Positions 41,880 through 54,731 of a stretch of DNA of 64,000 bases are shown piece by piece. Source of the stretch: Ignavibacteria bacterium (GTDB lineage Bacteria; Bacteroidota; Ignavibacteria; Palsa-1295); the NCBI GenBank assembly GCA_013287605.1, contig JABDDM010000004.1:233-64232 (forward strand), read 5' to 3'. Below the pieces are notes generated by a model, which saw nothing but the letters and a program-made list of their open reading frames with translations, made no database searches and was not told the DNA's origin. How positions within the stretch are numbered: position 1 is the first letter of the stretch; each line of letters starts with the position of its first letter. Made by a program: the position numbers and the translations under genes.

Positions 41880-42716
41880 CTAATGCTGAACAATCAATTT
41901 AGACGACGCAATGAGCGAAGAGCCGGAACGGACCTTTACGAAGTAGATGCCGTTCGGCAGAGCGTTAGTAGCAACGCTTACATCATTGCTCCCGCGATCA
42001 AGTGTCACTGAAGCAGATGAACGACGGCGTCCAGCTACATCATAAACTTCTATCGTGGATTCCTGATGACGATCGACGGAGATGGAAAGATTCGCTTGCC
42101 GATTGCTTGGGTTTGGCGAGATGCTGAGTGCCTGTGCAACATCAATGCTTGGTTCGACACCACGAGCCGGCGCAAGTTTGAGGATGTACTTTGGTGCCCA
42201 ATTCCAGAGATCAGAGCAATCACTACCAGAGCTTCCATCGCCATTTACTGCGTTGCCCGTTGCGTAGAGTGTGTCAGTGGTTGCGCCGATCGGAGCTTTA
42301 TAGTTAAACAACCAAGTTGCTGATCCCGAGTTAAGCACCTTCGGACCATTCTGATAAAGCTGTCCCGAATTTGAGCCGAGTCCGTCATTTTTGATGGTGG
42401 TCAATGTTCCCTTCCACACAGAGACGTTCACACCTGCAAGCAATTCTGACGCGTTGGAGACCTTAACCTGAAACTGATAAGTGCCGCCCTGAACGAAGGT
42501 CGTATCGAGAACGACAGGACTGAAGGATACTTGAGTTGCATTATCCGACTGCGGACAATGACAGGTACATCCCTGAATGTTATCTCCGGGACGATTCGTC
42601 GTTTGAATTATCCCGCCAGGATAGCTCGAGGCCTTGAATGTCACATAAAACACACTCAAAACAAAACAAGCTGCGATCCAGAAAGAGCGAGATCTATAAA
42701 TAGTAAACAATTTCAT
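41880..42716 (-). CDS. secreted protein: GCTCHC-motif N-terminal module + T9SS C-terminal sorting domain
   Basis: Signal/anchor MKLFTIYRSRSFWIAACFVLSVFYVTF. GCTCHC at nt 42555-42572. The module is paralogous to the N-terminus of the next gene. CTD is ...SISPNPSNRQANLSI...IEVYDVAGRR...LPNGIYFVKV...KLIVQH. Confidence 0.65.
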   Translation of the reverse strand: MKLFTIYRSRSFWIAACFVLSVFYVTFKASSYPGGIIQTTNRPGDNIQGCTCHCPQSDNATQVSFSPVVLDTTFVQGGTYQFQVKVSNASELLAGVNVSVWKGTLTTIKNDGLGSNSGQLYQNGPKVLNSGSATWLFNYKAPIGATTDTLYATGNAVNGDGSSGSDCSDLWNWAPKYILKLAPARGVEPSIDVAQALSISPNPSNRQANLSISVDRHQESTIEVYDVAGRRRSSASVTLDRGSNDVSVATNALPNGIYFVKVRSGSSLIASSKLIVQH

Positions 42717-42851
42717 GAATGATACAGAAAAGCACAAACTACTTGTTAAGACACAGATTCCTGCGCTTAGGATACACCAATATTTACACCAGCCTTTGAG
42801 TGCCCGAGCAAATCAAGAACGCCATCCTGGGTTGAAATTACACCCAAGCTT

Positions 42852-42895: not shown

Positions 42896-45800
42896 TCAAT
42901 GCTGCACAATAATGCGCGCGGATGCGGTAATCGATTCTCCAGCAAACGATTTCCCACTTGTACGAACGATGTAAATTCCGTTCGGTGCGGCCTCGCCTGA
43001 AGCGTTGCGTCCATTCCAAATCCACTGCCCCGTGACGCTGTGTGCCTCGGCGACAACCCGTCCCATGAGATCGAGCACTTGCGCATCGGCTAAACGAATG
43101 CCTTCAAAGTTGAATGCAATCTGACCGTGCGTTGGATTCGGGTTCGCTGTGATCGAGAAGCTCTTTGGCTGAAGCGATGCGACGCCTGAAGTAGTAAGTG
43201 TTCCTGTGATCGGATAAAGCGTACTTGTAATCCCCTGCTCACTCATGACGACAAGTGTGTCGAGATACGTACCAGCCTGAGACTCGAGCAATGAAATGCG
43301 AACATAGATCGAAGCCTGATCAGCCAGTAAGAATGGAATCGTTGAATCCGGAGACGTGAGAGTCTCAGAATAATGAGTGCCGCTCATAAGCCCGACACCA
43401 TCGATCTTCACTCGATGCCCCGAATTATTCGTAATCTTCGAGATCCACGATTTTGCACCATCTGATTTCAGCGTGATCACTATGTTCTCTGTCGAAGCCG
43501 AAACGAGCTGAAGGTTTGTCGTATCCGGTAGGATTGGTCCGACTGATCTGCCGACTCCGTGAAGTGTGACATCCGTCGTCTTACCGTCACTCTTTGAGAT
43601 CGTAAGTTTCGCTGAAAATTGGCCTGCTCCAGGTGGATCGAATGAGACCACAACATTCAGTTTCCCTGCGGTTTGCAAGGTCGCCGGCAGTGCAGGCAAT
43701 GTTGACTTCACGCCAAACATACTCGCATTTGCGCCTGTAATCGCCACAGACTGAATCGTCACCCCTGCTGTCCCGGTATTTGTAATGTCTACCGGCGAGG
43801 TTACAGTCTTCCCCGAATCAACAGTGCCAAAATCGAGGCTGGCGGGCGAGATGCTCAGTGCTCCCTCCAAACCATGTCCTGCGAGTCCGATCGTCAATGT
43901 ATGTGCGTTCGGATCATCCGTCGTCAGCGTGAGCGTACCAGAGTAGTTTTGGGCTGCAGTCGGCTTGAACGAAAGCGTGACATGAATGCTCGAGTTACCT
44001 GCGATGGTATGACTGACCGAGTCCTTCACACTAAAGACACCGCTCGCATCCGTCAGTGTATACTTAAGAATATTGACACCAGCCGCGCCGGTATTTTGGA
44101 GCGTGATGATCGTGTCGTGCGAAGTTTGCGTAGCAACACCCAGGAAATCAACGTTCGATGGAATGTTGAGAGCGCTATTGATACCCGCGCCCTTCAGATA
44201 TACCACCGTCGAGGGTTTGTTGAGATCGTCGCTCGCAATCGCGACCGAACCGGTGAACGAGCCAACAGTCGTTGGTGCGAAGTTAATTGAAACGATCGCG
44301 CTTGTTCCCACATCCACACTCGACGGTTTTGACTTGAGTGAGAATGGCGGCGAAGGCAATGGGACTGCGCTCGCAAGATTGAGCACATCGGTCCCTGTGT
44401 TTTGAACCGTAATACCCCGCGAAGCAGGAGCTGCGTTGATTCGTACGCTGCCAAAGTCGAGCGTATCTGCCGGCTGCACAGCAATGTGCGGAGCAAGCCC
44501 TTGTGCGATGACCGTAACGTTCGAAGTCGGATTCGCGGCATCATCAGTTGCGATCGCGATGCTTGCAGTGTCGAATTTTTCAGCAAGTGGAGAATAGTTT
44601 ATCAGTACTACTCCCTGTCCGCTTGGAGCGATCACTGGCGAAAAGTTTGAGATACTAAATCGTGCTGCGTTGCTGCCCGAGAGCGTAACTCCCGAAACGT
44701 GTAAGGAATCTGTGCCCGTGTTGCGAATAATGACACTCCCTTGCGTCTGTGCGTTGACGCGGACTCCACCGATGTTCGTCGGAGAAGTCACAGCAATCGT
44801 TGGAGCAATGCCAGTACCGGACAACGCTACCGTCGGAATCGTAAAGCCAGGCGCGCTAAGTGTGAGCGTGCCATTGTAAGTCGTTTTTGCAACTGGACTG
44901 AATCGCACTACCACCGAATCAGTCACGCCCGGAGGAAGCGCCAACCTCGTCGGCTGCGTTGCGATGGCAAATCCGCTACCGGAAATACTAGGAGACTGCA
45001 TGAACAGCGTATCGTCACCCGTATTCGAATAGACGAAGCCCTTCAATTTTGTCTGATTCGTTCGCAAGTTTGCAAACGCCAGCGTGTTGCCGCCGGAATA
45101 GATGGCCTGGATACCTGTGCCATTGAGGTAAACGGCCTTGCGCTGATCGGCAGGCGCGTCAACATCAGATGTAATGATGAGCGAATCGGTGTAACTTCCG
45201 CGCCCTGTGGGCGCAAAATAAATTGTGTCGATCTCCTGCGTACCATTGGCGATCGAGCGACTGCTCGTTGTTGGATAGCGGCTGAACGCAGTACCGGTCT
45301 TAAGCGACGTGTTAACCGTGATTGATGCCGTGCTCGTTGAACGGAGCTGCATCGTATCTTTCTTTGTCCTGCCAACGCGCAAATTCCCCATTGAAATCGA
45401 ATTGCGGCTAAGAGTGATCGCCTTCGTCACTGGTAAATCGACAACTGTGATCACATACTTCGGCGAGAAATTCCAAACATCGGTGCAGTTGCCTCCGCCG
45501 TTACTTCCGTCGAGATTCACAGCGTTACCAGTACCAAAGAGTGTGTCGGTGCCGCTTGTTGATGGAGCGGTATAGGTAAATGACCAACTTGCTGGCAGCG
45601 ATGTCGCTGCAGCACTGTGCGTCAATTCATTATTGATGACCTGCGACCCTGTTCCTGCAGTGAGCGTGCCTCGCTGAACCGCTACCTCGACGCCCGCTCC
45701 AGATTCTGACGAATTCGAAACCGTAACAGTGTACGTATACGAATGACCAGTATAGATCGTCGTTGCGGCCGTAGAAAATGATACCGTGGTGGAAGAATTC

Positions 45801-45991
45801 GCCGACGCACAATGACATGTACATCCTGAAGTGTTGCCACCTTTTTGAGTAAGCCCAGCGATATTCTGCCCATTCGAATGGGCATTTGCTTGATAGATGA
45901 CATAAACCCCTGCCAGGAGCATTGTCATGCCGATCCAGAGGCTTCGTAAAAACGCCTTTCGCATGAACGACCGAGTATCAACGATTTTCAT
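42896..45991 (-). CDS. large surface protein: GCTCHC-motif module + at least 6 tandem Ig-like (ASH/choice-of-anchor-D-like) domains + T9SS C-terminal sorting domain
   Basis: GCTCHC at nt 45809-45826. Repeats of the type LDFG.V......I.I.NTG...L.I......G.....F. CTD is ...FSITANPNPTHGQIAFNF...LDLMGRVV...APNGIYIVRTSGKSF...ARIIVQH. Confidence 0.75.
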   Translation of the reverse strand: MKIVDTRSFMRKAFLRSLWIGMTMLLAGVYVIYQANAHSNGQNIAGLTQKGGNTSGCTCHCASANSSTTVSFSTAATTIYTGHSYTYTVTVSNSSESGAGVEVAVQRGTLTAGTGSQVINNELTHSAAATSLPASWSFTYTAPSTSGTDTLFGTGNAVNLDGSNGGGNCTDVWNFSPKYVITVVDLPVTKAITLSRNSISMGNLRVGRTKKDTMQLRSTSTASITVNTSLKTGTAFSRYPTTSSRSIANGTQEIDTIYFAPTGRGSYTDSLIITSDVDAPADQRKAVYLNGTGIQAIYSGGNTLAFANLRTNQTKLKGFVYSNTGDDTLFMQSPSISGSGFAIATQPTRLALPPGVTDSVVVRFSPVAKTTYNGTLTLSAPGFTIPTVALSGTGIAPTIAVTSPTNIGGVRVNAQTQGSVIIRNTGTDSLHVSGVTLSGSNAARFSISNFSPVIAPSGQGVVLINYSPLAEKFDTASIAIATDDAANPTSNVTVIAQGLAPHIAVQPADTLDFGSVRINAAPASRGITVQNTGTDVLNLASAVPLPSPPFSLKSKPSSVDVGTSAIVSINFAPTTVGSFTGSVAIASDDLNKPSTVVYLKGAGINSALNIPSNVDFLGVATQTSHDTIITLQNTGAAGVNILKYTLTDASGVFSVKDSVSHTIAGNSSIHVTLSFKPTAAQNYSGTLTLTTDDPNAHTLTIGLAGHGLEGALSISPASLDFGTVDSGKTVTSPVDITNTGTAGVTIQSVAITGANASMFGVKSTLPALPATLQTAGKLNVVVSFDPPGAGQFSAKLTISKSDGKTTDVTLHGVGRSVGPILPDTTNLQLVSASTENIVITLKSDGAKSWISKITNNSGHRVKIDGVGLMSGTHYSETLTSPDSTIPFLLADQASIYVRISLLESQAGTYLDTLVVMSEQGITSTLYPITGTLTTSGVASLQPKSFSITANPNPTHGQIAFNFEGIRLADAQVLDLMGRVVAEAHSVTGQWIWNGRNASGEAAPNGIYIVRTSGKSFAGESITASARIIVQH

Positions 45992-46231: not shown

Positions 46232-46253
46232 AAAGAGAAAGCAGCGGCGCTGC
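46232..46253 (-). terminator. possible terminator after the patatin-like gene
   Basis: Minus strand GCAGC-GCC-GCTGC followed by TTTCTCTTT. The stem is short, so this is weak. Confidence 0.35.
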
Positions 46254-46265
46254 CCAGAAGATCGG

Positions 46266-49200
46266 TTAGAGTTGACTCGGTCGAGCGTAGAGCTTCGAGA
46301 GTAACCCAAAGAGGTTTTTAATATGATCAGCATCATACCCTTCTAGCGCATTCGATCCAGTTGCCTCAACAGTGTACTTCTGTGCAATTTCGAGTGCTTG
46401 CATCACGCTTCGATCTCCGAGCTTGCGATAGCTCTCGAATTCGGCTTCATCGAACCACTGATTTGGCAGCGAGTTATCAGGGAAGGCATCGTTCTCGCGT
46501 TTGTACTGCAGAACATCTACCTTTTCGCTTGCCGTCATCGATGGTTTGATCACGATGATCGTACCTTGCCTGCTATCGCGGTCTGTGTTACGCCAACCCA
46601 ATTCTGTTACATGCGCTTCGGAGTACGTGATCTTGCCGACGATAAAATGTTGGGCGTTGTTTCCATCGGCACCCGGAATGAGCGGCGTTAGATCGAGGTC
46701 GAACTCGGCACCGAAGTCAATGCGAGCACGACGAATGGCGTTTCCAAGATCGTCAAACGAAGGTGGGTCCCTATCCGCACCATTATCGCAAACCACGATG
46801 AACTTGCAAGCCCGCTGGATCAACGGATAGAGTCCTGTATTATCAAAGTGCCCTCCATCCGTGAGATAACAATAGGTAGTCTGCTCATTTGTCTGACTCA
46901 GCAGTTCGCGGATCATATAATACGGCCACAGTCTCGGCTGCGGCGATTTCCAGTGAGCTTTGTTGGGAGTGGGCGCCCAATAGCCGAGACGAATATTGAG
47001 CAAGGACATGAGCATCACAAGCGAACTTCCCGGCGTCTTGAAGCCCATATTCGGACTAGCTGCAGCGCCAGAAGTCGAGACCGCCGTACCAAGCGTCAGC
47101 TTCCCCGCCATGTATTCATCGGTCTTGCGATACCCTGTTCGCATTGAGCCGCAGTAGCGCTTACTCATGAGAAAGGAATCGGAACGGCGTTGCGCGGTTG
47201 CAAGATCGTTGCCCGCAACCAGATTCAATGTCGTCTGGATCAGGTGGAGCGGCCCTCCCTGGCTGCAGTTCTCAAGGTCTTTGAGATTAATGTCGTCATT
47301 TTGCACAGCATCATATATCTCCTCCTGGGAATCACCTCGCTCACGATTGGAGGCACCGAGATAGGCACGTACCAGCCTTGCTTTGTAGAATGTATGAATC
47401 GAGATCGCATTCGGGTCGATCATCCACCCCACGACTGCAACAAACGAGATCGCGAGCGATATTAATGTGACGGTCGAAGCCATTAATGAAAGCCGTGTAC
47501 TCGGCGTGGTGACGAAAAAGCTAAGCATCTGCATGAGCGTAAGGAGCGAATAGAGCAAAGCGAGCGTCGCAAATGTTCGAACGTTACGCTTCGAGCGCGC
47601 ATAGCGAATCTCGAACAGTATGAACGTGAGGACGATGATAAGGCCTGCGCAGCTCAGGAGCGCGATCTCCGGGGTATCAGCTCTATATCGCTGTGACACA
47701 TCGATCAAATGATCTACCAATTCGTTGACACCTGCGGCCAACAAAAGCAAACCAACCAGAAACATCGGTTTATGACCCTTTAACCAAAGGGACATTCTTG
47801 CAAGCGGCCGATTTACACGCGTTGGACTGAGACCGGTCGGATAGTACAGAACTACCCGATATACCAGCCCCGCACCGATCATGATAACCACGACAAACCA
47901 GTAAGCGGCAAGGTCATCGTCGATTCTCTTTGTCGGATTCTGCAAAGCCAAATAGATCGCGGCCGCTGCAATTACAAGAGCAACCGAAATCAGCGACCAT
48001 CGCCAACGACGAGCATCCGTACCCTCTTCCCATTCGATCTCCGTCGCTGCATAAAAGAACAGCACAGAAATCCCAACGAATGCAAGTCGCGTTAATAGGT
48101 GGTAAGCGGTGGCGTCCATCTTGTCCATGCTTCCGAGCAGATTGGTAGTGAGCCATGACGACTCCGCCAGCATTACCAGGAGTACCAGCGTGGGAGCGAC
48201 GAGAAGTATTAGATTGCGAAATCCAGAAGGCGCCTGTTGTTTTGTATGGTCGGATCCTCCCTTGGGTGAAACGACAACCGAAGTATAGATCGCGGCTGCG
48301 AGCGAGGCAAGGATCGCTAGCGGACCTCCATTCTGAAGAATGGCTTTCCCAAACAATCCCTCGGGATTGCTTTGGTCGATGATAACGCGCATCATATAGC
48401 CGCCGAATCCGGCAAAGAGCAGCACGACGAAGGTTATCGCAAATGTCACAAGCAACGTCGCATGCTTATTTACGATGCGATTGCGAAGGATCTCCTTAAA
48501 CGAATGTCCCTGAATCTTCGCATCAAGCAAGTCAGGTTTTTTCTTGAACACATTGATCAATAGTCCATACGCTATGATGAACCAAAGTGTTGCGCCGAAG
48601 CCGATATGATACGGGTGCTGTTGGACGTATTTCCACATTGCGGAGAAGCCAACGCCCTGCAGACGGAACAGCCACAGAATCAACAAAGCTACAACGAAGC
48701 CCGTGGCTGGCGCGACTCCGAGGATCCGACGACGCGTACGAGGGGCATTATCTCGTACACATTGCATCCATGCGGTCGTCAGCATGACGATCCAACCGAA
48801 GATCGCCAGGAGAGGCCAAAGGGCAAACTCGGCTCGGTTAATCAAATAATAATTTCCAGCACGCTTTACATAATTGAGAGAGTCCTCAGTGTTAAGTGAT
48901 ACGATCCTGGCGTGGTATAATCGCGATTTCTCGCTGTCTGCCTTCGCCGAATCACGGCGAGCAAGTTTTATCTGCGATGCGATGGAGTCTTTGAAACTCG
49001 CGAGCGCCACTGCGTCGCGATTGAGGAACTCGGTAGAATATGGCGTCCTTCCTTTCGGAAATGTGAACTCGATATTCGATTCAGGTTGCAGCGTGAAGTA
49101 GAACTGACCAACAAGAAGTGCTGCAATGAGGATCGGAACAAAAACAAGCCAAGTCAATACGAGATTGCGGGAGATCACAGCAGTCGCCCGCCATGTATCC

Positions 49201-49700
49201 GCACTGAGCAGCCCTTTGCGAGGCGTCAGATAATTCGAAAAAAGGCGAAGGTGGTGAATGGGATCCTTGCCCGCAGAAGCTGCGCTGTCAGGCAGATCAC
49301 GTAATCCGGGTTCGGATTTCTTACCAAAATAAGCAGAACGTTCATAGGCAATCTTTTCTTCATCCGGGAAGAGTCCTTTCCACTTGTTCTCTTTTCGAGA
49401 GAGCCATGCGCTCCACCAACCGCCCGTATATCCTCCACCGGAAACAGTTGAGAGATAATCGAAGATACCGAGGAGGTTGAGACGATGCAAGGCTTGCAGG
49501 ACCCCAAGCGAGAAAGTCGCGCTGCGAATGCCACCACCGGAAAGCGCAAGTCCTACGAGGTTCGACGGATCCGCCTGTTCCTTCGTTTCGGACCGATCTC
49601 GCCGAACGGCAATATCGGAAAGCTCCGCTTTGAATACATCTTCAAAGGTACTGGGGGCTTGAGGTGGCGGAGGCGGTATAGTCACACGCGCTGCAGTCAA
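46266..49700 (-). CDS. patatin/cPLA2-like phospholipase with ~14-TM insertion between the catalytic Ser and Asp motifs
   Basis: GLALSGGGIRS (oxyanion hole, aa 50-60), STVSGGG (Ser87), hydrophobic helices across aa ~176-761, then FYKARLVRAYLG, TAVSTSGAAASPNMG, LTDGGHFDNTGLYPLIQR (Asp948, nt 46857-46859). Non-ATG start (TTG 49700 or GTG 49685). Confidence 0.8.
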   Translation of the reverse strand: MTAARVTIPPPPPQAPSTFEDVFKAELSDIAVRRDRSETKEQADPSNLVGLALSGGGIRSATFSLGVLQALHRLNLLGIFDYLSTVSGGGYTGGWWSAWLSRKENKWKGLFPDEEKIAYERSAYFGKKSEPGLRDLPDSAASAGKDPIHHLRLFSNYLTPRKGLLSADTWRATAVISRNLVLTWLVFVPILIAALLVGQFYFTLQPESNIEFTFPKGRTPYSTEFLNRDAVALASFKDSIASQIKLARRDSAKADSEKSRLYHARIVSLNTEDSLNYVKRAGNYYLINRAEFALWPLLAIFGWIVMLTTAWMQCVRDNAPRTRRRILGVAPATGFVVALLILWLFRLQGVGFSAMWKYVQQHPYHIGFGATLWFIIAYGLLINVFKKKPDLLDAKIQGHSFKEILRNRIVNKHATLLVTFAITFVVLLFAGFGGYMMRVIIDQSNPEGLFGKAILQNGGPLAILASLAAAIYTSVVVSPKGGSDHTKQQAPSGFRNLILLVAPTLVLLVMLAESSWLTTNLLGSMDKMDATAYHLLTRLAFVGISVLFFYAATEIEWEEGTDARRWRWSLISVALVIAAAAIYLALQNPTKRIDDDLAAYWFVVVIMIGAGLVYRVVLYYPTGLSPTRVNRPLARMSLWLKGHKPMFLVGLLLLAAGVNELVDHLIDVSQRYRADTPEIALLSCAGLIIVLTFILFEIRYARSKRNVRTFATLALLYSLLTLMQMLSFFVTTPSTRLSLMASTVTLISLAISFVAVVGWMIDPNAISIHTFYKARLVRAYLGASNRERGDSQEEIYDAVQNDDINLKDLENCSQGGPLHLIQTTLNLVAGNDLATAQRRSDSFLMSKRYCGSMRTGYRKTDEYMAGKLTLGTAVSTSGAAASPNMGFKTPGSSLVMLMSLLNIRLGYWAPTPNKAHWKSPQPRLWPYYMIRELLSQTNEQTTYCYLTDGGHFDNTGLYPLIQRACKFIVVCDNGADRDPPSFDDLGNAIRRARIDFGAEFDLDLTPLIPGADGNNAQHFIVGKITYSEAHVTELGWRNTDRDSRQGTIIVIKPSMTASEKVDVLQYKRENDAFPDNSLPNQWFDEAEFESYRKLGDRSVMQALEIAQKYTVEATGSNALEGYDADHIKNLFGLLSKLYARPSQL

Positions 49701-49876
49701 TTAAAGGCGTTCGAACTTGGACAGCGCAATATAATGCAACAGAAGGCAAAATCAAAACCCGAAGAGTGCAATATTCCGTATTTCGTCCGAGGCACCGTGT
49801 AACTTGGACGGCCTCTTTTTTGTCACTCTATTGGAATCTCTGCTCAACTCATTAACCAACTGGAGTTTGAAATCTT

Positions 49877-50341
49877 GTGGATACATCGACCGCATATGGC
49901 ATCGAAGCCGGGCGTGCGCTTGATCTTTGGACGAAGCTGGCACGCGCGTTCACGACGTTTAACAAATTGACCATCAAGGATATTTCTGCGTATGGATTAA
50001 CACAGCCGCAGTTCGCTGTGCTTGAAACCATCGGACATCTTGGCCCGATGACCATCGGACTGCTCTGCAAGAAGATGCTGGTCTCCGGTGGGAATATGAC
50101 CGTGGTGTTGGATAATCTCCAGCGTGAAGGTCTGGTTGAGCGGGTAACAAATAAAGATGACCGTCGCTCTATCGAGATACGCTTGAGTGCGGAAGGCACA
50201 AGGCTGTTTAGCGAGATCTTCCCCAAGCATGCGAGTTATGTCGCGAATATCGCGAAGGTTCTCACGCCTGAAGAACAACGTGATCTTGCCGCAATGCTAA
50301 AGAAGCTTGGTACCTCATTGTCAGAAAGATTTGACGGCTGA
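49877..50341 (+). CDS. MarR family transcriptional regulator
   Basis: Winged-helix region LTQPQFAVLETIGHLGPMTIGLLCKKMLVSGGNMTVVLDNLQREGLVERVTNKDDRRS. GTG start. Divergent from the patatin-like gene. Confidence 0.85.
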   Translation: MDTSTAYGIEAGRALDLWTKLARAFTTFNKLTIKDISAYGLTQPQFAVLETIGHLGPMTIGLLCKKMLVSGGNMTVVLDNLQREGLVERVTNKDDRRSIEIRLSAEGTRLFSEIFPKHASYVANIAKVLTPEEQRDLAAMLKKLGTSLSERFDG

Positions 50342-51776
50342 TTTCAAACCTTTCCTTCTTCGATTCATCCGATCTATCAGCAGCGGCACGATCGAGAATA
50401 CAAGCCCGGCATACATCGGCTCCATTCCCCACAAGTACTGAGGCGAGACCGCATCGCCACGAGTTACCCCAAGGAGGTAAGCTGTGAGCGATCCCGAGAG
50501 TCCCAGCACCGTACTCCAGAATGCAGCCTTGGGACTGGGACGCCATTTGGGGAAATAGCTTAATGTTAGCGGGAAGAGAATCGCTGGCACCATGATCGAT
50601 CCGAGCGCATACCAGATCAAATAGATCTTCGGCGTGATCTGAATTATGACAAACGTAACAATCGCGGTGATAAGCAATCCGTAGCGAGTGAACCGCGTGA
50701 TCTTCGTAACATCTCCATACCCAAACAATCGCCAAAGGATATCATGACCTACAATCGTAGCGCTTGTAAACGTGAAGGCATCGACCGCACTCAATTCGGA
50801 TGCGAGTAAGCCAGTGTAGAATACACCTTTGAGTCCCATCGGCAGCACACGTTCTGCGAGCGCTGGATAGGCGAATCGACTTTCAGGAAGCGAGGCGAAT
50901 GCCGCTCTGGCATAAAGCCCCGCAAGATTCGTCATCAGATCAAAAACCAGCCAGCAGCCAACCGAGATAATCAATCCCCACTTCGCGACCTGGGGCTTCT
51001 TTGCAGCAAACACTCGCGTGTTCACATTCGGATCGACGAGCGTGCTAAGCGCAATGATGTACCACACAGCGATGTACCACGGACTAAGCCCGCCTGTCGG
51101 CTTCAAATGACCCGGCGGAACGTGTGATACAATAAAACTCCAACCACCAAATGTTTGGTAAGCGTATGGCAGAACCACTGCAAAGCCGAAGAACATTGTC
51201 AGGAAGCGCAGCGAATCTGCCCGCACAGGTGCTCGCAAACCGCCCATCAGCAGATACGGTAATGGAGTAACGACCGCAATGATCATCCCTAATGTCGTAT
51301 TGATTCCAAAAAAACCACTGATACAGCGTGCCCAGCGTCATGATATATCCAGCAGGACTCGTCAGGAAGAAGACGATTCCTGCACCAAGATAGCCCGTAC
51401 GCTCCCCGTAGGTTGATCGCAGGCGATCAGGAATGGTCGCATTCGCACGATCGCTGTTAACTCTGTGCGCCAGAAAGAACGCGAAAAGAAGTGCTGCGGC
51501 ATAATAAGGTATGCCGAAGACAACCCACATCACGATTCCTTTATCATACGAGAACTCGCCAACGCCAAGCACTCCGCCATACCACATCGTGACGAGAGTC
51601 GCGACGAATGCAGGTATTGTCAGCGTTCGACCGGCGAGGATAAAGTCTTCTGCATCGCTCTTGGGCTTATGCCGGCGAACGGTGATGAAACCGATGAGTG
51701 AATTGGCAGCGATATAGAAAATGATGATCGCAAGATCGAGTCCGCCTAAATGTGGCGTGAGCGAAGTTGACATCAT
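50321..51776 (-). pseudogene. sodium:solute symporter (SSS) family transporter interrupted by a 1-nt frameshift
   Basis: Track ORFs 51084-51776 and 50321-51286 are the N- and C-terminal parts of one SSS protein. Removing one base from the A7 run at 51308-51314 gives the continuous sequence ...LYQWFFGINTTLGMIIAVVTPLPYLLMGG... (about 484 aa). Confidence 0.75.
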
Positions 51777-51780
51777 CTTT

Positions 51781-52431
51781 TTATTTGCTCTTCACTCGCT
51801 CGAGGAACACGATCAGTGCGCCTGAAGTCATGCTCACCGATGCTTCGTCCGAGAGCATGCGATTGCTCAAGCCTTCTCGCACGCCGAGCATCATATCTTC
51901 GTCGTTGAGCGGGTACTCAAATCCGCGCAGCTTCACTTTGAGCGAGATTGGGTATGGTATGAGAGAGACTCGACGTCCAGCCCACCCGCTTACGCGGATT
52001 TCGCCTGGGCTATGCATGAACTGTATTTTATGGTTTAAGTCATATGCCATGAAGACGGGAAACCTCGATGCGTATCGCATCATCACGCTGTAATTTGTCA
52101 AGGTATGATCCTGTCTCCCACCGCCACCGTGCCCTAGCACGATTACCCCATCGATCGCATGGGCGAGCATCCACTTAAGCGCCTTTTCGCAATCGCCTGT
52201 TTCCTGATCCGGAATGTTGACGATCTGCACATCCTCACTGGCGGCCATCTTTAAATCCTTTGGCGTGATAGAGTCAATGTCACCTATGATTACGTCTGGT
52301 ATGATATTGTGCTTGAAAGTATAATGGGCAGCGCCATCTGCGCAGATGATACGATCGCTCCCTTCAATCATCGCGCTGACTTCCGCAATCGGAAGATCAA
52401 TATCGCCCGCAAGCAAGAGTACTGCTCTCAT
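51781..52431 (-). CDS. thiN: thiamine pyrophosphokinase
   Basis: RIICADGAAHYTFKHNIIPDVIIGDIDSITPKDL is a TPK catalytic motif of the GDxDS type. 216 aa. ATGA overlap with the upstream receptor gene. Confidence 0.85.
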   Translation of the reverse strand: MRAVLLLAGDIDLPIAEVSAMIEGSDRIICADGAAHYTFKHNIIPDVIIGDIDSITPKDLKMAASEDVQIVNIPDQETGDCEKALKWMLAHAIDGVIVLGHGGGGRQDHTLTNYSVMMRYASRFPVFMAYDLNHKIQFMHSPGEIRVSGWAGRRVSLIPYPISLKVKLRGFEYPLNDEDMMLGVREGLSNRMLSDEASVSMTSGALIVFLERVKSK

Positions 52432-54731
52432 AGTCCGATCTCGATTTGTCCAAAAAGATTGAACGGCGCACCGACAAAGAAGCCGAGGTCCTTTTCGACA
52501 TAGCTTGTATAGAGCACGTTCGTAAGGTTATTCGCCGTGATCTTGAACTGCAGATAGCTAAGTCCGAGTACCTTCGCCAGTTTGTAACTGGCTGAGCCGT
52601 TAAACAGAACGTATGCCGCATTCTTATAAAGATCTGAATTAAATATATCTCCGTAGAACGCTCCAACGTATCGGCCTGTGATTGCGATGTTAAATCCTGC
52701 CGCCGGGGCGAGCATGAGCATCAGGCCTCCGGTCGTTGAGGGAAATCCGATTGGGACCTTGCCATTTACACTAATCGTATCGGAGTATTTCGAAAACTGA
52801 GTGATCTCGTTGTGGCTGGCAGTGAACGTTAGCGCAAGTGATATCCAATCCGCAAAACGCGCATCGATGGATGTCTCCAGACCATAGTGAAGCGATTTGT
52901 CCGCGTTGGCAACGATTGAAGAGCCATAGTGATCCGTTCGTCCTGTTTTTATTATTTCGTCCCTGAAGCCCATGTAATAGCCGTTTACGGATAGACTAAG
53001 ATCGTTGATCGCTGCGTTCTGCAAAATCGATGACCTGGCTCCCAGTTCCAGATCGAGGAGGTGTTCGGGTTTGATGTTTGGATTACTGAAATCATACCCT
53101 CCGTCCGCAGTTCGCGCAAAATTCGGTTCGTGAAGGAAGTCAGGATTGTAGTAATCAGTAAGCACCGGCTCGCGAGACGTGTATGCAACAGAAGCGAAAA
53201 TACTGGCCTTCTCAAAGGCATAGTTTACGCCTAGTCGAGGATTAACGAACAGGAGTGGCACTGTAAAATCATAACTCTTCCAGCCTACGCTGGTACCGGT
53301 CGCTGTTGACATTCCGCTATCGACATAAAATGGCTTCTGATTGTAAAACAGATAACGATCACTTACCACTTGCAAACTGGCAAGCGCGCTAAGTGGAGTC
53401 GAGAGCGATAGCGCATCCGAAAGATATCCGGCGATCACATCTTTTCCACCATTGTACTCGTAAAAGTGATAATCACCAGGAAGATCGACAGGCATCTGGG
53501 CAGCAGAAAGCAATTTACCCCAATGCGTTGATCGATAGCGGCGAAGTTCTGCTCCGGCAGTGAACGTGCCATTTTCATGCTCGACTTCAACACGAGGCAG
53601 CCAGCCTATCTGATCACCGGCGACGTAAGCTCGCACAAGCTCATTGCCTAATGTCGAATCAGAGATCGGCAAACCGGTGAACCCATAGCGCGCACCATAT
53701 TGAGGAGTAAGGCAATAGTATTCAGTATGAGAATATCCGGTGAATGGCTTGACCCACGTTCCATCAAAATCGAATTGGCCGCTGCCATGGATATAAAAGA
53801 TTGCGTTCGAGACCTTGATCGAAGAACTTGGATTCCAGGTCGCGAGCAACTCGTAATGCGGCTGGAAGAAATCTTCGCGCTCCTCTGGCCTTCGTTGATA
53901 CGTTAACTGTTCCGATAAGTTGACCTTACGCAGGACGGGGTCTGTTAGTTCGGGACCATTCGGAACGGTTGGAAAGACTCCATAATAGTTCAGACCATCC
54001 GAGATCGGTCCGCCATAAAAATTGGCCTGAAGGCTGAACAATGAGTCGAATCGTGAAGCAGAGATATAGTACGAATTGAGATTGACGAATGAAAAATTGC
54101 GATAGCCATCCGTACTTAACTGACTTAACCGCGCGGTGATCAGATACTTATCATCGATGATACCCGAATTCAGCGTTGCCGAATACTTCTGTGTGTTGTA
54201 ACTTCCGTATCCGCCCGAAAAAGAGATTTGCCTGATCGCGTTCGGAGTTGTCTCGACATTGATCGAACCCCCAATTGCTGGAGGACCGTAAAATGCTGCG
54301 CCCGCGCCTCTCTCCACCGTCAACGTGCCAGTGCTCGCACTGAGGTCCGGCATATCGATCCAATAGACATTATGATCTTCCGGATCATTTTGCGGAATGC
54401 CATTAACGAGAATGGATAACCGTCGCTGATCAAATCCACGAATACTGACGAACGAATATCCAGTCTCCGTGCCGTTGTAAGAATAGACTGTGGCCGAAGG
54501 ATTTGTCGCAATAAGCTGCGGAACATCCTGAATTGTGGTCCGTGGATCAAGCGTGCTTCGATCGTATCTGTCGATCGGCGCGGGGGTCTTCCCTTCTGTC
54601 GCTGGAAAACCGGTAACGATGACTGGTTTGCCGATGACCTTTCGATGAACCGAATCGACAGAGGTCTGAGCGATTGATGTTGTACTAAATCCAAGAATGA
54701 GAAAAAGAGACAGGAAGAAAAGTCGGCGCAT
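52428..54731 (-). CDS. TonB-dependent outer-membrane receptor (TPP-riboswitch controlled, probable thiamine/precursor uptake)
   Basis: Signal peptide MRRLFFLSLFLILGFSTTSIAQ, plug region (ISIRGFDQRRLSILVNGIPQNDPE), 22-strand-size barrel, terminal ...FGQIEIGL. The riboswitch lies 80 nt upstream. Confidence 0.85.
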   Translation of the reverse strand: MRRLFFLSLFLILGFSTTSIAQTSVDSVHRKVIGKPVIVTGFPATEGKTPAPIDRYDRSTLDPRTTIQDVPQLIATNPSATVYSYNGTETGYSFVSIRGFDQRRLSILVNGIPQNDPEDHNVYWIDMPDLSASTGTLTVERGAGAAFYGPPAIGGSINVETTPNAIRQISFSGGYGSYNTQKYSATLNSGIIDDKYLITARLSQLSTDGYRNFSFVNLNSYYISASRFDSLFSLQANFYGGPISDGLNYYGVFPTVPNGPELTDPVLRKVNLSEQLTYQRRPEEREDFFQPHYELLATWNPSSSIKVSNAIFYIHGSGQFDFDGTWVKPFTGYSHTEYYCLTPQYGARYGFTGLPISDSTLGNELVRAYVAGDQIGWLPRVEVEHENGTFTAGAELRRYRSTHWGKLLSAAQMPVDLPGDYHFYEYNGGKDVIAGYLSDALSLSTPLSALASLQVVSDRYLFYNQKPFYVDSGMSTATGTSVGWKSYDFTVPLLFVNPRLGVNYAFEKASIFASVAYTSREPVLTDYYNPDFLHEPNFARTADGGYDFSNPNIKPEHLLDLELGARSSILQNAAINDLSLSVNGYYMGFRDEIIKTGRTDHYGSSIVANADKSLHYGLETSIDARFADWISLALTFTASHNEITQFSKYSDTISVNGKVPIGFPSTTGGLMLMLAPAAGFNIAITGRYVGAFYGDIFNSDLYKNAAYVLFNGSASYKLAKVLGLSYLQFKITANNLTNVLYTSYVEKDLGFFVGAPFNLFGQIEIGL

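Follow-up and report, generated by a model that had tools for sequence, protein, structure and literature searches.

A putative integral-membrane acyl hydrolase of the patatin/cPLA2 superfamily from an Ignavibacteria bacterium, with a catalytic domain probably split by a 14-helix membrane domain

We analysed a 64,000-nucleotide stretch of DNA from Ignavibacteria bacterium (NCBI GenBank assembly GCA_013287605.1, contig JABDDM010000004.1, positions 233 to 64,232; hereafter the window, numbered from its first letter) and focused on a gene of its minus strand encoding a lipase-like protein of 1144 amino acids (aa). An earlier note on this DNA, made from the sequence alone, described the product as a patatin/cPLA2-like lipase whose catalytic dyad is separated by a large membrane domain. 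Our results make it probable that the protein is an integral inner-membrane serine acyl-hydrolase of the patatin/cPLA2 superfamily, the catalytic domain of which is split by a 14-helix domain near the core/cap junction. The gene and the parts of its product are listed below, with the evidence in brackets (ORF, open reading frame; TM, transmembrane helix; pLDDT, predicted local distance difference test score).

46266..49700, minus strand: lipase gene, predicted integral-membrane cPLA2/patatin-like acyl hydrolase of 1144 aa (uninterrupted ORF, homologue alignment, model, fold search)
49173..49568, minus strand: N-terminal catalytic half, aa ~45-176 (Pfam Patatin, cPLA2 alignment, conservation, pLDDT)
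49101..49172, minus strand: TM1, aa ~177-200 (57% mean identity)
48828..49100, minus strand: predicted periplasmic helical loop after TM1, aa 201-291, ~90 aa (pLDDT ~68)
47430..48827, minus strand: TM2-TM14, aa 292-757 (hydrophobicity scan and model; poorly conserved overall)
46401..47429, minus strand: C-terminal catalytic half, aa 758-1100 (Foldseek, hhalign, conservation)

The lipase ORF starts with TTG at 49700, and an alternative GTG is present at 49685; an identical protein in public data (P0001, 1139 aa) is called from this GTG, five codons downstream of the TTG. Conservation sets in around aa 17 and no in-frame ATG is found close by, so the start codon is non-ATG under either call, in line with what had been noted before. 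All five motifs reported in the 1144-aa ORF were located at the residues given: GGGIR at aa 55-59 and STVSGGG at aa 84-90, with Ser87, in the N-terminal half, and FYKARLVRAYLG at aa 771-782, SGAAASPNMG at aa 877-886 and DGGHFDNTGLYPLIQR at aa 948-963, with Asp948, in the C-terminal half. The former half comprises the strand-GGGIR oxyanion/phosphate motif, the elbow T-V-S87-G-G and the conserved DPIHHLRLF...YLTPRKG...DTWRA stretch; the latter carries the interfacial helix FYKARLVRAYLG, the invariant SGAAxSPxMG, the catalytic D948-G-G and the remaining core strands.

Profile searches matched Pfam Patatin (PF01734) to the N-terminal part of the protein only, at aa 51-121, with 32.3 bits against a cutoff of 27.7. 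Since this match covers just positions 1-69 of the 191 in the profile, the catalytic domain is interrupted. The C-terminal half scanned alone gave no Pfam, NCBIfam or PADLOC match, the whole protein gave no NCBIfam or PADLOC match, and PLA2_B (PF01735) was matched at E<=1 by neither the whole protein nor the C-terminal half. There was likewise no match to a C2 domain in the protein, which has only ~45 residues ahead of its first strand. A search of PDB sequences with the family profile recovered the nucleophile region alone.

A structural model, as called for in the earlier note, was built with AlphaFold2 from alignment A2, which is composed of the query and 82 homologues (83 sequences). This gave a confident prediction, with a mean pLDDT of 82.3 and a predicted TM-score (pTM) of 0.84; the pLDDT was ~89 in the N-terminal half, 81 in the TM helices, 68 in loop 1 and 87 in the C-terminal half. 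Of the sheet, strands 49-53 and 82-85, the second of which lies just ahead of Ser87, come from the N-terminal half, and the remaining strands, including 943-947 just ahead of the invariant D948-G-G, come from the C-terminal half. A Foldseek search against the PDB returned human cPLA2 alpha (1cjy; E=3.5e-5, probability 1.0, 439 columns) as the top match and cPLA2 delta (5iz5; E=9e-5, probability 1.0) as the second. Weak matches to VipD, PlpD, Pat17, ExoU, CapV and CapE covered ~50-150 columns of the N-terminal part at E>0.01, and nothing significant was found among the viral structures of BFVD. In the model the soluble parts have a cPLA2-like fold, and the interrupted Pfam match, the model and the fold search together support the proposal that a polytopic membrane domain splits a single catalytic domain of the patatin/cPLA2 type.

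The relationship to cPLA2 was also examined by profile alignment, using a human cPLA2 alpha sequence identical to residues 1-749 of 1cjy_A and a shallow cPLA2 profile built from close vertebrate orthologues. Residues 48-91 of the query aligned to cPLA2 alpha 189-232, which pairs R59 with R200 and S87 with S228, and the segment past D948 aligned to the segment past D549. In the elbow T85-V-S87-G-G, the serine aligned to S228 is invariant and the first glycine is replaced by a near-invariant threonine. When the family profile was compared by hhalign with the single cPLA2 sequence, short local matches only were obtained. With the insert deleted, the family profile was colinear with cPLA2 alpha 145-742 (E=4.7e-4, probability 32%), with D948 equivalent to D549 and the deletion junction at about cPLA2 alpha residues 350-375, in the middle of the alignment where hhalign confidence is low. 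This colinear, non-overlapping mapping, the pTM of 0.84 and the complementary strands of the two halves lend indirect support to a single alpha/beta domain in which Ser87 and Asp948 would be juxtaposed. In the 1999 cPLA2 structure the cap, which walls the active-site funnel, is reported to comprise residues 370-548; on that basis the membrane domain would be inserted, approximately, near the core/cap junction, and aa ~762-947 are the probable cap-equivalent region.

A Kyte-Doolittle scan revealed 14 hydrophobic segments within aa 180-757, and the AlphaFold2 model contains 14 long helices matching these segments, plus a helical periplasmic hairpin in loop 1. The number of helices is therefore even by both counts, as the earlier note had proposed when it placed the two catalytic halves on the same side of the membrane. 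With a cytoplasmic N-terminus assumed and 14 helices placed, the predicted cytoplasmic loops hold 29 lysine and arginine residues vs. 13 in the predicted periplasmic loops, and loops 2, 4, 10 and 12 are strongly basic; by the positive-inside rule this supports an N-in/C-in topology in which both soluble halves would be cytoplasmic. The loop of ~90 residues described after the first helix was found at aa 201-291, and among homologues it is variable in sequence and ranges in length from 7 to 201 aa. In TM1, R178 and P189 are invariant and N179, T183, W184, L187 and Q199 near-invariant. Conserved positions of the whole insert are R178, P189, N407, P503, E554, E697 and R708, together with a flexible cytoplasmic loop, P479-x-G-G-x-D484. 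The TM2-TM14 region is covered by no Pfam or NCBIfam model, and Foldseek found no credible fold relative of the membrane domain in the PDB, the best membrane-protein matches having E>0.5, a TM-score <0.15 and a root-mean-square deviation of 20-35 Å. An internal-repeat test of the membrane domain gave a weak hairpin-level repeat only, which leaves a transporter-like 7+7 duplication unsupported.

Conservation within alignment A2 follows the proposed division of the protein. S87, D948, G55, G56, G57 and R59 are invariant in 83/83 sequences, so that loss of the Ser/Asp motifs, which had been suggested as a check, was seen in none of them. The segment from W170 to D762 measures 505-980 aa (median 591) in every aligned sequence. 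As the serine, the aspartate and the insert occur in all 83, the architecture is not a product of chance. Mean identity of the 82 homologues to the query is 63% in the N-terminal half, 57% in TM1, 18% in loop 1, 21% in TM2-14 and 59% in the C-terminal half.

The family proved to be large. A word-indexed protein search returned at least 7,663 proteins at E<=1e-3 from 8,000 scored candidates, and the matches listed came mostly from metagenome-assembled genomes of Acidobacteriota, Chlorobiota, Gemmatimonadota and Longimicrobiaceae. When the C-terminal half alone served as the query of an exhaustive HMMER search, 10,957 clusters (50% identity) were recovered at E<=1e-3, and 5,643 of these at E<=1e-30. 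Among GTDB species genomes at least 589 species have a relative, and cultured hosts include Massilia, Luteimonas, Chromobacterium alkanivorans, Rhodanobacter and Caballeronia choica. Most GTDB relatives keep both catalytic halves around an insert that is shorter and unalignable; in these relatives Ser and Asp are 553-760 aa apart, and about 8-10 segments are hydrophobic. The split architecture is thus the family's defining conserved feature, and the sequence and helix number of the insert vary. On the question raised in the earlier note, whether the family is a common one, the answer is that it is very widespread, with about 11,000 clusters and a minimum of 589 species, and its members are publicly labelled 'hypothetical protein' or 'patatin-like phospholipase family protein'. 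The narrower claim, that no characterised patatin has such an architecture, holds for the literature searched, in which we found no description of a patatin/cPLA2 domain interrupted by a polytopic membrane domain. The gene itself has not gone unseen, given its generic labels; its architecture, cPLA2 affinity and scale seem not to have been described before.

About half of the aligned clade, including P0005, P0013, P0059, P0072 and P0107, carries an extra N-terminal module of roughly 260-300 aa that is absent from the window protein. The module has no Pfam match. Its AlphaFold2 model (pLDDT 83.9) matched ThuA-like/class-I glutamine-amidotransferase-like folds (4pxy and 2gk3, E~5e-6). Because the homologues share no invariant Cys or His in it, the module is probably a non-catalytic regulatory or binding unit.

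The immediate surroundings of the lipase gene comprise three further features.

46239..46255, minus strand: weak terminator-like hairpin, 11 nt past the lipase stop codon
49701..49876, no strand assigned: divergent intergenic region of 176 nt (sigma70-like promoter and two AACTTGGACRGC copies)
49877..50341, plus strand: MarR-family regulator, divergent from the lipase gene (Pfam E=5e-15)

The terminator attributed to the gene is represented by a hairpin just after the stop codon; terminator-like sites in the lipase region are no commoner than in shuffled sequence, and 'weak terminator' is the most that can be claimed. In the intergenic region a sigma70-like -35/-10 pair for the lipase gene lies at 49755-49728 on the minus strand. 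The 12-mer AACTTGGACRGC is present at 49714-49725 and 49801-49812 on the plus strand, 87 nt apart, and has no other copy in the window; the two copies could be candidate regulator binding sites. No exact-seed inverted repeat was detected in the 176 nt. We also observed a hairpin, CGTCCGAGG...CTTGGACGG, with a T6 run at 49783-49823 (plus strand), ~54 nt upstream of the MarR start codon. Despite its terminator- or attenuator-like look, its folding energy is no better than that of shuffled sequence (z=-0.4).

The divergent MarR neighbour and the shared 176-nt region, both pointed out before, are present in the window. The pairing does not extend to the family: BLAST with the window's MarR found none in the flanks of about 76 homologue loci, three long-contig homologue contexts showed unrelated neighbours and no MarR, and an annotated copy on an Azospirillum plasmid is isolated, with no MarR beside it. 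MarR is a local neighbour specific to the window genome and not a conserved partner. All-vs-all clustering of 1,418 flanking ORFs from these loci gave no cluster in more than 5 loci and no conserved sensor or cyclase partner. On 121 nearest neighbours from about 65 loci, PADLOC gave sporadic matches (the most frequent model, mad8, had 3 members), and Pfam matched 143 families, the commonest being Patatin (5 members), with Lipase_3 found twice. The lipase gene is a stand-alone unit. In 5 loci an ATPase-like P-loop ORF of ~870 aa adjoins the lipase homologue downstream, convergently and ~28 nt away (L051, L053, L071, L082 and other Nitrospira-type loci), a recurrence that is probably lineage synteny. 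The gene of the closest homologue, P0002 (47% identity; L001 10363-15699), lies beside genes for a DNA methylase, an AAA_25 ATPase, DUF6371 and an HTH_17 protein, a context that resembles an integrated mobile element.

We propose that a single catalytic domain would be assembled from the two cytoplasmic segments, aa ~45-176 and ~758-1100, joined through the 14-helix membrane domain. Two tethers would attach it, the highly conserved TM1 on one side and TM14 with the interfacial helix FYKARLVRAYLG on the other, and would keep the opening of the active site permanently at the cytoplasmic membrane face. In this way the membrane domain would make the Ca2+/C2-domain recruitment known from eukaryotic cPLA2 unnecessary; it probably also forms, or lies alongside, the route that a membrane lipid takes into the funnel. 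Catalysis would follow the cPLA2 scheme, with Ser87 as the nucleophile, Asp948 as the general base, the backbone of G55-G57 as the oxyanion hole and Arg59 binding the phosphate. The enzyme would be a phospholipase A/lysophospholipase, or possibly a transacylase, and its role is most likely turnover or remodelling of the cell's own membrane lipids. We infer the insertion point relative to the cap, the substrate class, the role in the access path and the physiological role.

Several observations weigh against this proposal or would also fit another one. In hhalign the colinear alignment is weak, and its middle part is not reliable; the junction is approximate, and the nucleophile elbow reads T-x-S-x-G instead of the canonical G-x-S-x-G. 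The patchy phyletic spread, the copies on plasmids and chromids and the optional, sensor-like N-terminal module are also compatible with a role in conflict or as a toxin. Patatin domains recur as effectors of abortive infection, and the protein might be a latent self-destruct effector resembling CapV of CBASS or the NLR-associated patatins, inactive in the membrane until a signal of stress or infection, sensed by the membrane domain or by the optional N-terminal modules, triggers degradation of the cell's own inner membrane. CapV and CapE are among the weak structural matches, the distribution is scattered across many phyla, P0002 has mobile-element-like surroundings, and the ThuA/GATase1-like module without catalytic residues in about half of the clade could be a sensor. 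We nevertheless judge this explanation unlikely: the best structural match is cPLA2 and not a CapV-type patatin, the lipase protein has no PADLOC match, the 121 nearest neighbours at homologue loci represent 143 unrelated Pfam families with sporadic defence matches (mad8, 3 members), no sensor or cyclase partner is conserved, and plain housekeeping genes are the neighbours at many loci.

A coupled transporter-enzyme, in which the 14-helix domain is a lipid or lysolipid flippase or scramblase feeding an outer-leaflet or periplasmic substrate to the cytoplasmic active site, has in our estimate an equally small chance of being correct. The bundle is transporter-sized, the polar residues N407, E554, E697 and R708 are conserved at intramembrane or interfacial positions, a hairpin-level repeat is faintly visible, and there are profile matches to the 14-TM MFS protein EmrB and other carriers; at E~0.02-1, these are weak and typical of hydrophobic composition bias. 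LplT-Aas offers a precedent for lipid flipping coupled to a lipid enzyme at the cytoplasmic face (PMC11416262). On the other side, Foldseek matched the membrane domain to no known fold, whether of a transporter or of anything else. Identity within the clade is only ~21% in TM2-14 vs. ~57-63% in the catalytic halves and TM1; the catalytic core and TM1 are thus strongly constrained while TM2-14 drift, a pattern that suits a scaffold or a part in substrate access better than a transporter or gate that is conserved. In distant relatives the insert is a different one and has fewer helices, which would not be expected if a mechanism of transport were conserved, and the replacement of the insert by other helical bundles likewise favours a scaffold or access role over a transporter or a specific sensor. 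The incomplete Pfam match (the first 69 of 191 patatin positions) and the lack of any Pfam match for the C-terminal half alone might suggest an artefact, namely that genes were fused, that the assembly is chimeric, or that a degenerate patatin fragment and an unrelated C-terminal domain stand side by side as independent domains without a shared active site. We give this next to no credence, and it is effectively refuted by recurrence of the architecture, the conserved motifs and the fold match. Thousands of independent assemblies, complete genomes from cultured bacteria among them, show the same colinear arrangement, the ORF is uninterrupted, the C-terminal half has the invariant D-G-G motif and a structural match to cPLA2, and the pTM of 0.84 indicates one rigid assembly. 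The split, membrane-embedded acyl hydrolase remains our preferred interpretation. A bolder extension of it, which we regard as tentative and somewhat doubtful, is that the nested membrane domain is a new fold acting as the enzyme's cap, through which a bilayer lipid (including damaged, lyso or outer-leaflet lipids) passes sideways, directly from the bilayer, into an active site of the cPLA2 type. In that case the protein would be the founding member of a widespread, hitherto unrecognised group of intramembrane-fed bacterial phospholipases or transacylases, and the cPLA2 lineage, commonly seen as eukaryotic, would have in it a relative among prokaryotes.

Other parts of the window contain features of separate interest. 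A sodium:solute symporter (SSF) gene at 50321-51776 on the minus strand appears to be broken up into two ORFs, 51084..51776 and 50321..51286, which overlap and differ in frame; the latter matches Pfam SSF positions 128-406. A frameshift, a pseudogene or an error of sequencing is the likely explanation. C-terminal sorting domains of the type IX secretion system (Por_Secre_tail) were found on two minus-strand products, 42896-45991 and 41880-42737, one of which is a 1031-aa protein with at least 6 ASH/HYDIN-type Ig-like repeats; such products indicate a member of the FCB group (Ignavibacteria/Chlorobiota/Bacteroidota-like). At 51781-54731 (minus strand) the gene for a TonB-dependent receptor is followed immediately downstream by one for thiamin pyrophosphokinase, and the two overlap by 4 nt. 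They may form an operon, possibly an unusual receptor/kinase pairing for thiamin uptake and activation.

Lipases of the cPLA2/patatin type are interfacial enzymes that are normally recruited to membranes. In the family described here the recruitment problem would be solved by a polytopic membrane domain nested in the catalytic domain, an arrangement undescribed for any lipase in the literature searched. With ~11,000 clusters at 50% identity, spread over many soil and freshwater phyla and several cultured genera, a single biochemical or structural study would annotate thousands of genes. How bacteria break down and remodel their own membrane phospholipids in a controlled way is poorly understood, and study of this family could bear on such turnover. 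The results also suggest that cPLA2-like catalytic domains, best known from eukaryotes, have abundant bacterial relatives.

Among known systems, LplT-Aas couples lysophospholipid transport to re-acylation and is fused in some bacteria; as proposed for the lipase, an enzyme that modifies lipids at the cytoplasmic face works there with, or is fused to, a polytopic membrane module, yet an MFS transporter is joined end-to-end with an acyltransferase/acyl-ACP synthetase, with no nesting of domains (PMC11416262). Foldseek against the PDB detected no homology of the lipase protein to LplT-Aas. The closest functional analogue of the favoured role is PlaF, an inner-membrane-anchored, cytoplasm-facing phospholipase A that remodels the cell's own glycerophospholipids. 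It has a classical alpha/beta-hydrolase fold and not that of patatin/cPLA2, is anchored by one terminal TM helix, and is not known to be homologous. In Pseudomonas aeruginosa, PlaF was described as a single-pass inner-membrane phospholipase A of a bacterial Lands cycle (bioRxiv 10.1101/2021.06.22.448587).

Permanent membrane attachment of a patatin-type lipase is a property shared with PNPLA6/NTE and PlpD. PNPLA6/NTE is held in the endoplasmic reticulum by an N-terminal TM anchor. PlpD is a patatin fused to a 16-strand Omp85 barrel (PMC11116518). In both, the membrane fusion is terminal and the catalytic domain contiguous, whereas the membrane domain of the lipase is predicted to be nested in the catalytic domain, alpha-helical and located in the inner membrane. 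The Patatin/PNPLA family (PF01734; Pat17, ExoU, VipD, CapV, CapE) has the dyad chemistry and the superfamily fold in common with the lipase, the N-terminal 70 residues of which score above the gathering threshold; the known members are soluble or secreted, and the lipase matches profile positions 1-69 of 191 only. cPLA2 (group IV PLA2) differs in having an N-terminal, Ca2+-binding C2 domain (groups IVA, B, D, E and F) and Ca2+-dependent recruitment, neither of which is present in the lipase protein, and its elbow reads G-L-S-G-S vs. T-V-S-G-G. The lipase protein, for its part, is bacterial, has the polytopic insert of 505-980 aa inside its catalytic domain and does not match PF01735. Common to the two are the Ser-Asp dyad, GGGxR with the phosphate-binding Arg, the D-x-G...N...YPL sequence past the Asp, a long Ser-to-Asp spacing with a cap-like region, and an N-terminal helix ahead of the first strand.

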